From Eubacteriales bacterium (GTDB taxonomy: Bacteria; Bacillota; Clostridia; Oscillospirales; CAG-272): DNA of 64,000 bases. The DNA lies in NCBI GenBank assembly GCA_045655185.1, contig JAZOOS010000034.1, positions 84,744 through 148,743 on the forward strand. The letters are read 5' to 3'. This document shows positions 60,577-64,000 of this stretch, one piece after another. The notes beneath the pieces were generated by a model. It ran no database searches. It was not told the DNA's origin and saw only the letters and a program-made list of their open reading frames with translations. Position 1 is the first letter of the stretch; the number at the start of each line of letters is the position of its first letter. The position numbers were made by a program, and so were the translations under genes.

Positions 60577-60605
60577 TTGACAAACTACACGGAAACAAGT
60601 ATAAT
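60577..60605 (+). promoter_or_regulatory. Perfect consensus promoter TTGACA-N17-TATAAT for tRNA-Leu
   Basis: Hexamers at 60577-60582 and 60600-60605. The tRNA starts 12 nt downstream. Confidence 0.8.
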
Positions 60606-60616
60606 ATCAATCGTCC

Positions 60617-60700
60617 GCGAGAGTGGCGGAACTGGCAGACGCACACGTTTGAGGGGCGTGTGGATTCTCCGTACGGGTTCAAGTCCCGTCTCTCGCACCA
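60617..60700 (+). tRNA. tRNA-Leu (anticodon GAG), encoded CCA
   Basis: Hand-folded cloverleaf. The acceptor stem is GCGAGAG/CTCTCGC. The anticodon stem is CACGT/GCGTG with loop TTGAGGG. There is a long variable arm, a T-arm ACGGG-TTCAAGT-CCCGT, and a discriminator A plus CCA. Confidence 0.9.
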
Positions 60701-60742
60701 ACAAAAAAGGATAGCTTTGGCTATCCTTTTTTGTTTATAACG
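60682..60742 (+). repeat. Direct repeat copy A (last 19 nt of tRNA-Leu + terminator)
   Basis: 61 bp, identical to 60871-60932 except for one indel and one loop substitution. Confidence 0.9.
60703..60736 (+). terminator. Terminator after tRNA-Leu
   Basis: Hairpin AAGGATAGC-tttg-GCTATCCTT followed by T6. Confidence 0.8.
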
Positions 60743-60870
60743 GGAGAAGAGTCGGGACTTGAAGCGCCACGGTAGTGAATAACGACCTGAACGGTCGTTA
60801 GAGCCGTGGCGGACCGAAGAGAGAAGAAAAGGCGAAATTCTCTCGCCTTTTCGCACGCTCGATGAGACCC
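60743..60870. other. 128-bp structured insert between the direct repeats
   Basis: A nested hairpin CGCCACGG...CCGTGGCG encloses AACGACC-tgaa-CGGTCGTT. A second hairpin is AAAAGGCGA-aattctc-TCGCCTTTT. The 11-nt CGGGACTTGAA is the reverse complement of the tRNA T-loop. Confidence 0.6.
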
Positions 60871-60932
60871 AGTCCCGTCTCTCGCACCAACGAAAAAAGG
60901 ATAGCTTCGGCTATCCTTTTTTGTTTATAACG
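60871..60932 (+). repeat. Direct repeat copy B (orphan tRNA-Leu 3' end + terminator)
   Basis: AGTCCCGTCTCTCGCACCAACGAAAAAAGGATAGCTTCGGCTATCCTTTTTTGTTTATAACG. No 5' part of a tRNA lies upstream of it. Confidence 0.9.
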
Positions 60933-60959
60933 CCCCACGGAAAGCCTTGCCCCCTCAAA

Positions 60960-60988
60960 TTGACAATGAGACAAATTTATGCTATAAT
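60960..60988 (+). promoter_or_regulatory. Perfect consensus promoter TTGACA-N17-TATAAT for the lipoprotein pair
   Basis: Hexamers at 60960-60965 and 60983-60988. Confidence 0.7.
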
Positions 60989-61034: not shown

Positions 61035-61937
61035 ATGAAACGCTTAACAAGAATTATCGCAGGCATCTGTATGGCGATCCTTTTGGCCACAAGCATGAGT
61101 GGCTGCAAAGGCGGCCCCGATTATGATGGGTACAAAGGTGCGTATCCCGGGGCCTACACCCTGATATACAGCCAAGTTCCCGATATTATGGGCGTGAAAA
61201 CCGATATTTCGTGGCGTTCTGATCCCCAAATCGTTCTTTTAGATACCGATGATAAGGGGCGCGCGCTTTACGTTTATCTTGAAAACACCGATGAGCTGCT
61301 TTCGATCGGTATCGTGCAAAAGGAAACGGGGGATAAGATCTATTTTTATCCCGAGAAATCCACCCTTTCCTGTTGGATCCCTGATCGGTATTATCAATAT
61401 AAGTTTACCGATGCGGAATTGTTATCACTTGTATATGAGCTTTTCCCAAACGAACAGATCAAAGTGCTTAAGGCGGCGAACGATTGGGGAGAGCCGATCA
61501 ACGAAGAGAAGCTTGACAGCGCGCCGATTATTACTCCCCCTATAGAAATTGTATATGCACTTTGCGGAAGAGAAGATGGTGTCAATCTAACACGCGAAGT
61601 GTGGCATCAGCAGTTGGTTGCTGTCGCGCAAGAAAACGGGCACGGGTTTGCCGATTCGAGCTATCCAATTTATTTTAATTACGTAAGATGGATGGAAACC
61701 GATTCGTATGGGCGACGTCTTTATTACGTTGATGGCGAATATACGACGTATCCAACCGAGGAAGACGACCCACATATCCGCTATTTTACCCATTATCTTG
61801 AAATGATCGCTATTATCAATCCGGACGGCAGTTTTAACGAAGACACCTTTATGGCAGAGCTTGCGGACAAAGCCGACTATCAGGAACCGCTTCGCGCATT
61901 AAAGGAAACTAACGGTTGGAATCAGCCGTTTGAATAA
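61035..61937 (+). CDS. Hypothetical lipoprotein, paralog 1 (two internal repeats)
   Basis: ATG 61035 gives a signal peptide plus the lipobox MSGC. The repeated modules are DDKGRALYVY...NDWGEPIN and DSYGRRLYYV...NPDGS...TNGWNQP. Confidence 0.75.
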   Translation: MKRLTRIIAGICMAILLATSMSGCKGGPDYDGYKGAYPGAYTLIYSQVPDIMGVKTDISWRSDPQIVLLDTDDKGRALYVYLENTDELLSIGIVQKETGDKIYFYPEKSTLSCWIPDRYYQYKFTDAELLSLVYELFPNEQIKVLKAANDWGEPINEEKLDSAPIITPPIEIVYALCGREDGVNLTREVWHQQLVAVAQENGHGFADSSYPIYFNYVRWMETDSYGRRLYYVDGEYTTYPTEEDDPHIRYFTHYLEMIAIINPDGSFNEDTFMAELADKADYQEPLRALKETNGWNQPFE

Positions 61938-61948
61938 GGAGGAGCACT

Positions 61949-62764
61949 ATGAAAGCTTTTTTGAAAAAAATCAGTGTTGTCCTCCTTGTGTTTGCGTTGC
62001 TTACCGCAATTCTGCTTTTGGCGGGATGCACCCCACCGCCGTATCAAGGCTATGAAGGGGAGTTTCCAGAGCTTTGCGCGGTGGCGTGGGCTAAAATTCC
62101 CACGACAAAGGGATATAAGTATGATGGTGTAGGCGGGGATCCTTATGTTTCGAGTTTAGAAACCGATGGCTTTGGGCGTGTCCTTTTCTTTTATTCTGAA
62201 GATACGGAAAACGAAAAGGGCTATATTGCGATTATGCAACGCACGGATGGGACGAATGCCTATTATTATGCAGACGATTGTTATGTCCCCATCACTCGTC
62301 CGTCTGCCGACAAAGCGATCGATCTGAACACGAGAGAGATTGCCGCGCTTAAAGAAAGCAGCGATTGGGGGCTTCCCCTAAACCAGGAAAAATGCAAGGT
62401 GACCAAGATCGATAAGTTCCCGATACCCGGAGAACTGGGGCTCACCTCTGACTTTTTTGAAGATCTGCTGAGAGAATATTACGAGCACAGTGGTCGATAC
62501 ATCCATCCTAAAAACGAAAACGTTATATATTATTTTCGTTACGTTATGACCGATGATTACGGACGCGAGTTGTATTTCGTTGGAAGCGTTTTTGATGAAT
62601 ATTCTCCCAAAACAGCAACCGTTTATGATTTTTATTTTCTAATTGTGGTAAACCCCGATAAAAGCTACGATGTTTCCAAGGTCGTTCTGCTTGAAAACGA
62701 AAACGACCCCCTCGAGGACGAGAAATGGATCAAGGAGCAAAATGGGTGGAATACCGCACCCTGA
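61949..62764 (+). CDS. Hypothetical lipoprotein, paralog 2
   Basis: SD AAGGAGG upstream and lipobox LLAGC. The modules DGFGRVLFFY...SDWGLPLN and DDYGRELYFV...NPDKS...QNGWNTAP are collinear with paralog 1. Confidence 0.75.
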   Translation: MKAFLKKISVVLLVFALLTAILLLAGCTPPPYQGYEGEFPELCAVAWAKIPTTKGYKYDGVGGDPYVSSLETDGFGRVLFFYSEDTENEKGYIAIMQRTDGTNAYYYADDCYVPITRPSADKAIDLNTREIAALKESSDWGLPLNQEKCKVTKIDKFPIPGELGLTSDFFEDLLREYYEHSGRYIHPKNENVIYYFRYVMTDDYGRELYFVGSVFDEYSPKTATVYDFYFLIVVNPDKSYDVSKVVLLENENDPLEDEKWIKEQNGWNTAP

Positions 62765-62846: not shown

Positions 62847-64000
62847 TCAATCGCCTTGAAGGTGAGACACCACTCTTCTGTAATACGCGTCTGCCATTTG
62901 GAGATAGCCCTCGGGCGATGCGTGGAAGGCGTTGGTGTTGATCGTTTTTATGATGGAGGAGCGTACGTTGACGGGTAGATCTTGCATTTGCAGGCTGTAA
63001 TCACTGTCAAACTGCCCCAGGATGCTTAAAAGCTCGACCTTGCCGCGATAGGCGGGCTCTTGCGATATATCGTGATACCATTTGTCAAGATTGAATATAA
63101 ATTCCATCTTCTCCCACCACTTGAAACGAATGCCGTAGTTGTGGCCCGTTCCGTCACGGCCGAGTGTGATCAATCCTGTGAGCGTTATACGGCAATCCGG
63201 GAATTCGGCAAGAAATCCGTCAAGAAAATCGCGAACCAATTGCTTATACGCGTATTCGCTCATATAGGTGCTGTTGCCGCCAAGCATGATGAGAAGCTCG
63301 TCAATGTGATCGACCCCCATCCGCTCCGCGTATGCGCGGAAGTTGTTGCGCCCAAGCTCCTCATCCTAGAAGGGGTTTGCCTCAGCGGGTTTTACCTCGG
63401 TATACACGATATCGGCATGGTTGGTGCCACCGCTTGCATGATGAAGCACGGCGGGGGCAGGCGGGATCGTGCCGCCATACGCGGTGCGAATAAGCTTTAT
63501 GCGGTTCTTCGTGATCGACTCAAGCTTCCAGGTTCCGCCGATATCATCGGAATAAAAGCTGTGCCGGTCTGCGGTTTCGTTCTTGTCCGAAAAATCACCG
63601 TAGACGTGTAGATAAAGCGAGGATCGTTTTTAGAATCTACAAAAGATTTGAAGCTTCATCCTCCGTAGCCTTCGTGGCGTACGCCGTATTTCTCATTGTT
63701 TCCGATAAAACGGATGTTTTTGAGCGCATCACCATTCGGTGTGCCACCGGTGCCCGTCAGACGGCGGTGCAGCTCGGAGGGCCGGATACCGGGAGAAACG
63801 CCCGAATCTCCCATACAAAGCACGATATACTCGCTTTTTGGTGATTGAGGCTTGTTCCAAACGCGCATATTGACCGTCTTTTCCTCAATCGGAGCCCCGG
63901 TATTGTCACGCAAGATGATGCGAAGCTTGCGCTGACCGACGTCCTCTTCGGTCGGCGTAAAGACGAACTTACGACGGTAGGATGCGCCGCTCTGCTCGCC
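62847..64000 (-). pseudogene. Disrupted SGNH/GDSL-family hydrolase, 5' end beyond the window
   Basis: Fragments carry block I CMGDSG, block II HEGYGG, block III MLGGN and a terminal H (NAFHASPEG). They are split by an in-frame TGA (63656-63658), a frameshift near 63600-63630 and an in-frame TAG (63366-63368). Confidence 0.7.

Follow-up and report, generated by a model that had tools for sequence, protein, structure and literature searches.

A tRNA-linked structured repeat of the RtT kind, not homologous to RtT, behind tRNA-Leu(GAG) in a member of Clostridia

The window, by which we mean the whole stretch of 64 kb analysed here, carries a tRNA-Leu(GAG) gene, and the 3' end of this gene recurs downstream together with its terminator. 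The elements of the locus are as follows; coordinates here and below are positions in the 64-kb window and refer to the + strand unless stated otherwise.

60577-60605, + strand: sigma-70 promoter of the tRNA-Leu transcription unit, TTGACA-17-TATAAT (12/12 matches)
60617-60700, + strand: tRNA-Leu(GAG) gene with encoded CCA (ARAGORN; Rfam RF00005, 48.4 bits)
60682-60742, + strand: repeat copy A, 61 nt, comprising the final 19 nt of the tRNA gene (60682-60700), followed by the terminator and GTTTATAACG
60703-60735, + strand: intrinsic-terminator-like hairpin A, AAAAAAGGATAGC TTTG GCTATCCTTTTTT (inverted repeat, 16/16 complementary; read by eye)
60871-60932, + strand: repeat copy B, 62 nt, consisting of the copy of the tRNA 3' end, the terminator and GTTTATAACG
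60893-60925, + strand: terminator-like hairpin B (inverted repeat)
60960-60988, + strand: promoter of the downstream lipoprotein operon, with TG extension (12/12 sigma-70 matches)

Copies A and B lie 189 nt apart from start to start with 128 nt between them (60743-60870), and their only differences are an additional G (60892) and a T/C substitution in the loop of the terminator. Positions 60871-60889 are identical to 60682-60700, i.e., to the tRNA 3' end including CCA, and the boundary of the repeat is A58 in the T-loop of tRNA-Leu(GAG). In the 64-kb window, either half of the repeat is found at these two places and nowhere else (and in 0/100 shuffles), and the sequences flanking the two copies are unrelated on either side. 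The first-pass annotation had described this duplication, its single indel and substitution and its unrelated surroundings in the same way, and this description is accurate. By eye, the terminators read GGATAGC-TTYG-GCTATCC followed by T6; these + strand terminators are absent from the list of the promoter/terminator scan because the A-run/T-run was absorbed into the maximal stem of the scan. Downstream of copy B, we also recovered what had been annotated as a perfect promoter, lipoprotein genes and a decayed hydrolase: namely, the promoter at 60960-60988, which belongs to the right flank of the repeat region and is outside the module described below, a pair of paralogous lipoprotein genes, and a GDSL-type hydrolase gene broken into two fragments. 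A weak RVT_1 match in the second lipoprotein (E = 0.004, below the cut-off) was regarded as noise. No second tRNA or pseudo-tRNA was detected on either strand of the spacer with ARAGORN and RF00005, and the 128 nt contain no ORF remnant. The annotated lack of an integrase holds for the part that was checked, the neighbouring genes (SecA, TrmL/SpoU, the lipoproteins and GDSL).

The spacer had been noted to be highly structured and to contain an inverted 11-nt copy of the T-loop, both of which are borne out: the spacer together with the end of copy B folds at -64.4 kcal/mol (z = -5.1), and the exact 11-nt reverse complement of the T-loop/T-stem, CGGGACTTGAA, lies at 60753-60763. In our judgement, the duplicated tRNA end probably caps the 3' side of a structured module (60744-60889, about 146 nt) that is appended to the tRNA-Leu(GAG) transcription unit. 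Its predicted architecture is a three-way junction of the stems P1, P2 and P3, with the following parts.

60748-60764, + strand: antisense segment a' (AGAGTCGGGACTTGAAG), the 5' strand of the closing stem P1
60765-60811, + strand: conserved core (P2, internal loop and P2b)
60765-60773 with 60803-60811, + strand: P2 stem
60774-60780 (AGTGAAT) opposite 60800-60802 (AGA), + strand: K-turn-like internal loop
60781-60799, + strand: P2b hairpin
60812-60870, + strand: P3 arm, consisting of the joiner GACCGAAG, an A-run/T-run hairpin (60826-60852) and CGATGAGACC
60871-60889, + strand: tRNA 3'-end copy a, consisting of the P1 3' strand (60871-60882) and the single-stranded tail CGCACCA (60883-60889)

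The antisense segment a' is complementary to the T-loop, the T-stem and the acceptor 3' strand, both in the tRNA and in copy B, and pairs with 60871-60882 in the predicted fold; as the downstream arm (60748-60772) of a 25-nt inverted repeat, the a' region is 80% complementary to positions 60669-60693 of the tRNA. Within a', GGACTTGAAG is invariant in 10/10 members of the family. Throughout the family, furthermore, P2 is GCGGU/GCCGC with an invariant U.G pair adjoining the conserved loop, the asymmetric loop has AGUGAAU opposite (N)AGA, and the hairpin above it varies in sequence and keeps its pairing. The loop pattern (GCGGU, AGU, GA AU ... A GA, GCCGC) is invariant in 11 sequences. A K-turn has a C-stem, a 3-nt bulge and tandem sheared G.A/A.G pairs, followed by a non-canonical stem, and to judge from its sequence the pattern of the internal loop fits such a motif. 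The P3 arm is variable among members and resembles a weak terminator; the scan listed 60852-60826 as terminator-like on the - strand.

Relatives of the locus were collected in two ways: an exact-protein look-up with the adjoining TrmL/SpoU gene gave two contigs of the same species (L001 and L002), and a TrmL scan with one genome per species gave 80 loci from uncultured Eubacteriales/Oscillospiraceae MAGs. The module was found in all five close-relative sequences recovered (L001, L002, L034, L035 and, in part, L036), among which there was no empty-site allele; the promoter of the tRNA-Leu unit is kept in the first four. L001 and L002 have the arrangement of the window except for a deletion of 14 nt (TGAGACCCAGTCCC, 60862-60875), which includes part of the P1 3' strand. 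In L035, the TrmL of which is 94% identical, the spacer again lies between two repeats behind the tRNA, and the flank that follows is a different one. L034 (TrmL 98% identical) carries a longer array: the tRNA, the first module and a repeat are followed by another module, which is longer and has identical ends, then by an end copy, the third, whose terminator is different, by an islet of 1 kb and by a degenerate fourth copy. Beyond this array are the flank GCCCCACGGAAAGCC and the promoter that form the right flank in the window. The islet has end copies on both sides and two genes, encoding a 23S_rRNA_IVP protein and a DUF4275 protein. Further downstream in L034, 9.7 kb contain three BspA-type LRR proteins, homologues of the two lipoproteins of the window and a GNAT protein, and no integrase. 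The region 3' of copy B varies between strains, in keeping with the first-pass annotation. The outcome that this annotation had named as counting against mobile-element activity, namely relatives with the arrangement of the window, was largely observed, though the copy number varies. Truncated or chimeric copies occur in L036, L116, L119 and L120; together with the deletion in L001 and L002 and the variation in copy number, they show that the element is not essential and is dispensable or decaying in places.

Evidence for a conserved structure comes from several comparisons. The same three-way junction was predicted independently in 8 homologues. MAFFT misaligned the short forms of L121 (a locus described below) when applied to full-length modules, and the core was hence aligned on its own (11 sequences). 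In this alignment, 83% of the cells were paired compared with 69% in shuffles, the covariation score was 0.39 versus 0.13 in shuffles (reached in 0/500 shuffles), with slid controls at 0.09 or below, and 8 pairs of the core were changed on both sides. RNAalifold on five long forms gave 41 pairs, 12 of which have compensatory changes, including changes in P3 between the window and L035 (GAG/CUC to GGG/CCC). Such covariation would, nonetheless, also be expected from a DNA hairpin element. Between the window and L035, moreover, the identity of the module/spacer is 89.9%, compared with 71.7% for the third codon positions of TrmL; on this comparison the module is more conserved than synonymous sites and is not drifting as a scar would. 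A covariance model of the core, R1, matches the window at 60750-60815 (86 bits, E = 9e-18), and there is no further copy of the core elsewhere in the 64 kb. When 1.3 Mb of related loci were searched with R1, only matches adjoining tRNA-Leu were obtained, plus one weak match in a tmRNA-linked module, and the core copies of the host clade were always in the orientation of the adjoining gene.

In many related species, the terminator of tRNA-Leu(GAG) is followed by one to five tandem modules, which obey the same logic with unrelated interiors. By sequence, three classes of the module can be distinguished; the window belongs to class iii, and the other two are as follows.

Class i (L066, L068, L077, L079): GTGCGAGAGAC ... 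about 170 nt ... CCCGTCTCTCGCACCA
Class ii (L052, L059, L071, L074, L093): GAGAGACGGGACAG ... about 60 nt ... GACATCTCTCGCACCA

L071, of class ii, has 4.3 copies with a period of 129 bp. All three classes open with a stretch that is antisense to a portion of the tRNA 3' end and close with a sense copy, and all of them have multi-branch folds closed by these two segments, with a 3' tail; in class iii, this tail consists of the acceptor strand and ACCA. Within 62 nt downstream, 17/27 tRNA-Leu genes of the host loci have an antisense segment of 10 nt or more, and downstream sense copies accompany 12 of the 27, while no such antisense or sense copies were seen at the seven other host tRNAs (0/7) or at phage tRNAs (0/310).

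A metagenome scan with the conserved class-iii pattern gave six more contigs. At the locus L121, a promoter and tRNA-Leu(GAG) are followed by a 29-nt spacer and a minimal module of 100 nt that ends with AAGTCCCGTTTCTCGCACCA, the final CCA base of which is followed without a gap by a tRNA-Leu(CAG) gene; no terminator-like site was predicted upstream of this first module on that strand. After tRNA-Leu(CAG) come a terminator and two more modules ending with AAGTCCTTTTATCCGCACCA, which is the 3' end of tRNA-Leu(CAG). P1 is ACGGGACUUG/CAAGUCCCGU behind tRNA-Leu(GAG) and AAAGGACUUG/CAAGUCCUUU behind tRNA-Leu(CAG); the antisense strand has thus changed from ACGGGACUUG to AAAGGACUUG in step with the end copy, and the closing stem is kept for two different tRNAs. 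The weak R1 match mentioned above led us to L059, where a module of 143 nt (z = -6.5) stands behind the terminator of a tmRNA gene identified with ARAGORN. This module is closed by GAGGGGAGUUG/CAACUCCCCUC, the pairing of an antisense segment with a copied tmRNA 3' end. Both strands of the cap, therefore, co-vary with whichever tRNA or tmRNA precedes the module.

A comparable arrangement is known in Escherichia coli: tyrT is followed by tandem repeats of 178 bp, each finishing with the 19 nt at the 3' terminus of tRNA-Tyr, and these repeats are the source of RtT RNA (rttR). The 178-bp repeats of tyrT/tyrV were reportedly described by Egan and Landy in 1978 and by Rossi et al. in 1981, and the RtT repeats are thus said to have been on record since 1978. 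In the E. coli tyrT locus that we retrieved, every unit ends with AATCCTTCCCCCACCACCA, shares 19 nt with tRNA-Tyr from A58 onward, and includes an antisense counterpart of the tRNA end, GGGGAAGGAT. The Rfam model of RtT, RF00391, matches four units in this locus (133-137 bits); its consensus is closed by an antisense GgGaaGG with the end copy CCuuCcC and leaves a free tail of 9 nt, ccaCCACCA. The window resembles RtT in that tandem units (189 bp versus 178 bp) stand directly 3' of the tRNA on the same strand, that the 3' end of each unit copies the upstream tRNA from A58 through CCA, exactly 19 nt, and that a closing stem (AGAGUCGGGACU/AGUCCCGUCUCU in the window) is followed by a single-stranded 3' tail (CGCACCA). 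The copy number is likewise variable, from 1 to 10 per genome in E. coli and from 1 to 5 in the clade examined here. In contrast to RtT, nonetheless, the window represents another phylum (Clostridia) and another tRNA (Leu), its unit contains an intrinsic terminator and, in the core, a K-turn-like loop that is absent from RtT, it lacks a Tpr-like small ORF, and there is no similarity in sequence or model. Indeed, RF00391 (threshold of 45 bits) had no match in the window even at E <= 10, and none in L121 or the viral loci; the feature is thus an architectural analogue of RtT and not a homologue, and it adds a new variant to the tRNA-linked structured repeats of this kind.

The 3' external transcribed spacers of tRNA operons can also act as RNAs, as exemplified by 3'ETS-leuZ. 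Theta ribozymes, which are minimal HDV-like ribozymes, adjoin phage tRNAs (PMC10879173). Like these two, the module is a structured element immediately 3' of tRNA genes, where the known RNAs are matured by or serve tRNA processing, and the setting of gut Clostridia and phages is also shared. Unlike them, however, the module begins at some distance from the tRNA 3' end, and neither a double-pseudoknot/ribozyme core nor an Rfam ribozyme match was recognised in it. With permissive thresholds, Rfam returned only tRNA and rRNA for the window, L121, the class i and ii loci and the viral loci, with no RtT and no ribozyme; no Rfam family covers any of the three module classes. As for RtT itself, Rfam classes it as cis-regulatory, PMC2965389 and PMC7542023 cite Bosl & Kersten 1991 for RtT RNA, and its function is described as unknown (PMC7542023; bioRxiv 2024.07.17.603846).

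Taken together, we favour as the probable explanation an RtT-like RNA module that is linked to the tRNA operon and has spread by tandem duplication. The unit of duplication would comprise the tRNA end, the terminator and the module body, with gains and losses by unequal recombination between the repeated end/terminator segments. In P1, the 5' segment, antisense to the T-loop, the 3' strand of the T-stem and part of the acceptor strand, would pair with the copy of the last 19 nt of the tRNA and leave CGCACCA-3' single-stranded. The + strand might be transcribed along with the tRNA, which in the window would happen by read-through of the terminator and at loci such as L121, which have no terminator in between, would be direct. 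Against this reading stand the lack of a predicted promoter for the module itself in the window scan, the good intrinsic terminator in front of it, which would make its expression dependent on read-through, and the likeness of P3 to a weak terminator. The RNA may then be trimmed to a CCA-ended species by the tRNA-processing machinery, as RtT RNA is reported to be. Indirect support for release by processing could be seen in the first module of L121, which lies between two tRNA genes and abuts the second. Our best guess for the role of the module would be a mimic of the tRNA end or a cis element on tRNA precursor transcripts.

On a wider scale, it is conceivable, at somewhat below an even chance in our estimation, that the modules constitute a family of modular structured RNAs, so far undescribed, that is found in both gut Clostridia and their phages, with a K-turn-bearing three-way-junction core, a cap matching the 3' end of a tRNA or tmRNA and a displayed CCA tail, in which the solution of RtT was reached independently. 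If this is true, there would be a general function for tRNA-end-capped RNAs, for example as a decoy for readers of tRNA 3' ends or as a controller of the fate of tRNA precursors. That the K-turn-like core is invariant and recurs in dispersed copies on phage contigs suggests a protein partner and a broader RNA class outside Rfam. An independent and non-homologous family in another phylum would make RtT a recurrent design that is open to comparative study, instead of a curiosity of a single lineage, and the comparison points to the antisense/end-copy stem and the free acceptor tail as the apparent targets of selection.

Alternatively, the module might be a mobile or selfish structured DNA repeat of the REP/BIME or MITE type, the core of which spreads to intergenic sites, including those behind tRNA and tmRNA terminators, and the RNA fold of which is incidental or serves merely as a terminator or stabiliser. 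We consider this unlikely, and the first-pass annotation had likewise mentioned a miniature mobilisable element. When viral contigs were scanned with the core pattern, 21 stretches were obtained, about 15 of which are true core copies in IMG/VR phage contigs; this dispersal agrees with mobility. L123 and L131 are cap-matched modules at prophage-host junctions. The other viral copies are intergenic within phage structural-gene modules, in either orientation relative to the genes and with up to three nearly identical copies per contig, a pattern that suits a DNA-level repeat as well as it does an RNA gene. Like REP/BIME, the modules are highly structured, intergenic, multi-copy in some genomes and, on phage contigs, found in either orientation; the tandem arrays and truncated copies also fit, and in enterobacteria there is overlap between rtT-like sequences and dispersed BIME repeats (PMC2965389). 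In view of the dispersed copies, an origin as a mobile structured repeat is conceivable. Unlike REP/BIME, however, the module in the host clade is confined to sites downstream of tRNA or tmRNA genes with a gene-matched cap: within the 1.3 Mb, the core is seen only beside tRNA-Leu or tmRNA and always in the orientation of the gene, the cap strands covary with the local tRNA, and the 64-kb window has no other copy. No target-site duplications were seen. The dispersed viral copies, furthermore, have unrelated closing stems and extra conserved joiners in common, and a constant core with variable closing helices would have the look of a functional folded domain, the reverse of terminal inverted repeats recognised by a transposase. 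Curated phage and plasmid collections also gave no support: BLAST of 60617-60960 and of a dispersed viral core copy against INPHARED phages, and of a core-type query against PLSDB plasmids and INPHARED, found nothing past tRNA similarity. The idea of a miniature mobilisable element is kept alive by the dispersed phage copies.

A cis-acting element for processing or quality control of the tRNA transcript, as opposed to a stable RNA, is improbable. In such a case, the antisense segment in a read-through transcript would pair with the genuine T-arm across the terminator and form a long duplex, for example as a target of RNase III, and the downstream end copy would be an alternative partner of the antisense segment. 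In silico, the antisense segment pairs better with the genuine 3' half of the tRNA than with the copy, and in the minimum-energy fold of each of three constructs (60617-60889, 60617-60868 and 60617-60775), 60753-60763 is paired with 60678-60688; since this pairing with the T-arm appears in every read-through construct, a cis role on precursors is a live alternative. The two 25-nt arms, which are located around the terminator, point in the same direction, as do the cis-regulatory label of RtT in Rfam and the terminator stem of L117 and L066 (of the class with the longest modules), which runs on into CGCACCA/TGGTGCG. The basis of these predictions is, however, purely thermodynamic, while co-transcriptional folding and modification of the tRNA would favour the cloverleaf, and the conserved K-turn-like core and its dispersed phage copies are left unexplained by a cis element.

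Two further origins were considered and rejected. A remnant of a group II intron was suggested by the GTGCG starts of class i and by GAGCCGT in the window, but no Rfam intron matched, and GTGCG is simply the complement of the tRNA end. Reverse transcription primed by a tRNA was considered for the A58 boundary, but the repeat includes the genomic terminator, which is absent from the mature tRNA.

The original interpretation of the locus, an att-like scar in which an element integrated into the T-loop of tRNA-Leu(GAG) with a replacement 3' end and an internal deletion left 128 bp between attL and attR, is largely refuted and now very improbable, because the supposed remnant is a conserved, folded and covarying spacer that opens with an antisense copy of the tRNA end, which is not a product of att recombination, because the same core recurs, with caps to match, downstream of other tRNAs, as does a related module downstream of a tmRNA gene, and because no integrase was found in the neighbourhood or within the 9.7 kb of L034. 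The window does share with attL/attR duplications at tRNA and tmRNA genes, both of which are also affected by the module family, a direct repeat of the tRNA 3' part that starts in the T-arm, lies downstream of the intact tRNA and flanks seemingly inserted DNA, and the islet between end copies in L034 is compatible with an insertion; unlike those duplications, however, it has neither recombinase nor cargo, and the left end of the spacer had 0 matches in the viral contigs scanned. A repeated tRNA 3' end is thus not in itself evidence of an integrase event, which matters for automated callers of genomic islands.

The annotated integration hotspot, by comparison, does exist in related taxa, though the repeat of the window is itself not such a junction. 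The viral contigs L012, L021 and L029 contain only the 3' fragment of tRNA-Leu(GAG) from ACGGGTTCAAGTCCCG, the T-stem 5' strand, and are genuine att-type junctions; they begin at this strand (ACGGGTTCA) and not at A58, and they lack the antisense-plus-core structure of the window. In L096, furthermore, a large serine recombinase gene adjoins the tRNA, and mobile-element genes are located there in L061; tRNA-Leu(GAG) is thus a real site of integration in related taxa.

In minimum-energy folds of the read-through transcript (60617-60889), the antisense segment pairs with the T-arm of the genuine tRNA-Leu(GAG), and the acceptor strand of copy B, the second copy of the tRNA end and terminator, pairs with the 5' acceptor strand of the tRNA; both pairings are thermodynamic predictions only. 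A module is also linked to tmRNA in L059, a more distant locus of the host clade:

L059:18008-18567, - strand: tmRNA gene, then a terminator, then the module

The predicted closing stem of this module joins the antisense segment to a duplicate of the 3' end of the tmRNA, which takes the logic of a gene-matched cap beyond tRNAs.

The core of the module contains an invariant internal loop, flanked by a stem closed by U.G, and copies of this core are found in viral contigs:

window 60774-60780 with 60800-60802: internal loop, AGUGAAU opposite AGA
L126, 4375-4591, 9013-9229 and 12605-12821: copies of the K-turn-like core

The AGUGAAU/AGA loop fits the sequence pattern of a K-turn and suggests a protein of the L7Ae family as its possible partner. 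Further copies of the core occur in L125, L129, L130, L133, L135, and L136, and in all seven contigs the closing stems differ from that of the module. These phage-contig copies are intergenic, lie in both orientations among capsid, portal, and terminase genes, and matched no Rfam family and no entry in INPHARED or PLSDB.

Downstream of copy B lie the following genes:

window 61035-62764: two paralogous lipoproteins
window 62847-63320 and 63656-63913 (overall 62847-63913), - strand: GDSL/SGNH-type hydrolase, apparently in two ORFs

Identity to the counterparts in L001 and L002, two contigs of the same species, is only 73% and 81% for the two lipoproteins, against 100% for TrmL, which flanks this locus, and 99% for the GDSL fragment. 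The stretch 61035-62764 is a surface-protein locus that is either diverging fast or recombining, with the conserved predicted promoter at 60960-60988 driving it. In the close relative L034, homologues of the two lipoproteins (63% and 73% identity) are preceded by three additional BspA-type LRR lipoprotein genes. The ORF break in the hydrolase is common to the window, L001, and L002; Pfam Lipase_GDSL gave a weak match only, on the L001 homologue.

Several other arrangements were noticed around tRNA-Leu(GAG):

L034:1464-1700, and L037 and L046 just 3' of tRNA-Leu(GAG): short-hairpin arrays
L117:3290-3500: broken 5' fragment of tRNA-Leu(GAG) and duplicated upstream region, ahead of the intact gene

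The hairpin spacers repeat the word AATGATG in L034 and ATGAAG in L037 and L046, and the arrays are followed by the inverted words CATCAT and CTTCAT and a promoter. The L034 array is upstream of a 23S_rRNA_IVP and DUF4275 gene pair, which has tRNA-end copies on either side. In the metagenome contig L117, the terminator stem reaches into the tRNA end (CGCACCA with TGGTGCG). In two more distant species, translations judged by eye place mobile-element-like genes beside tRNA-Leu(GAG), on its downstream side: L096 has an ORF of 602 aa whose N-terminus resembles a serine recombinase, and L061 has small genes like those of conjugative elements.
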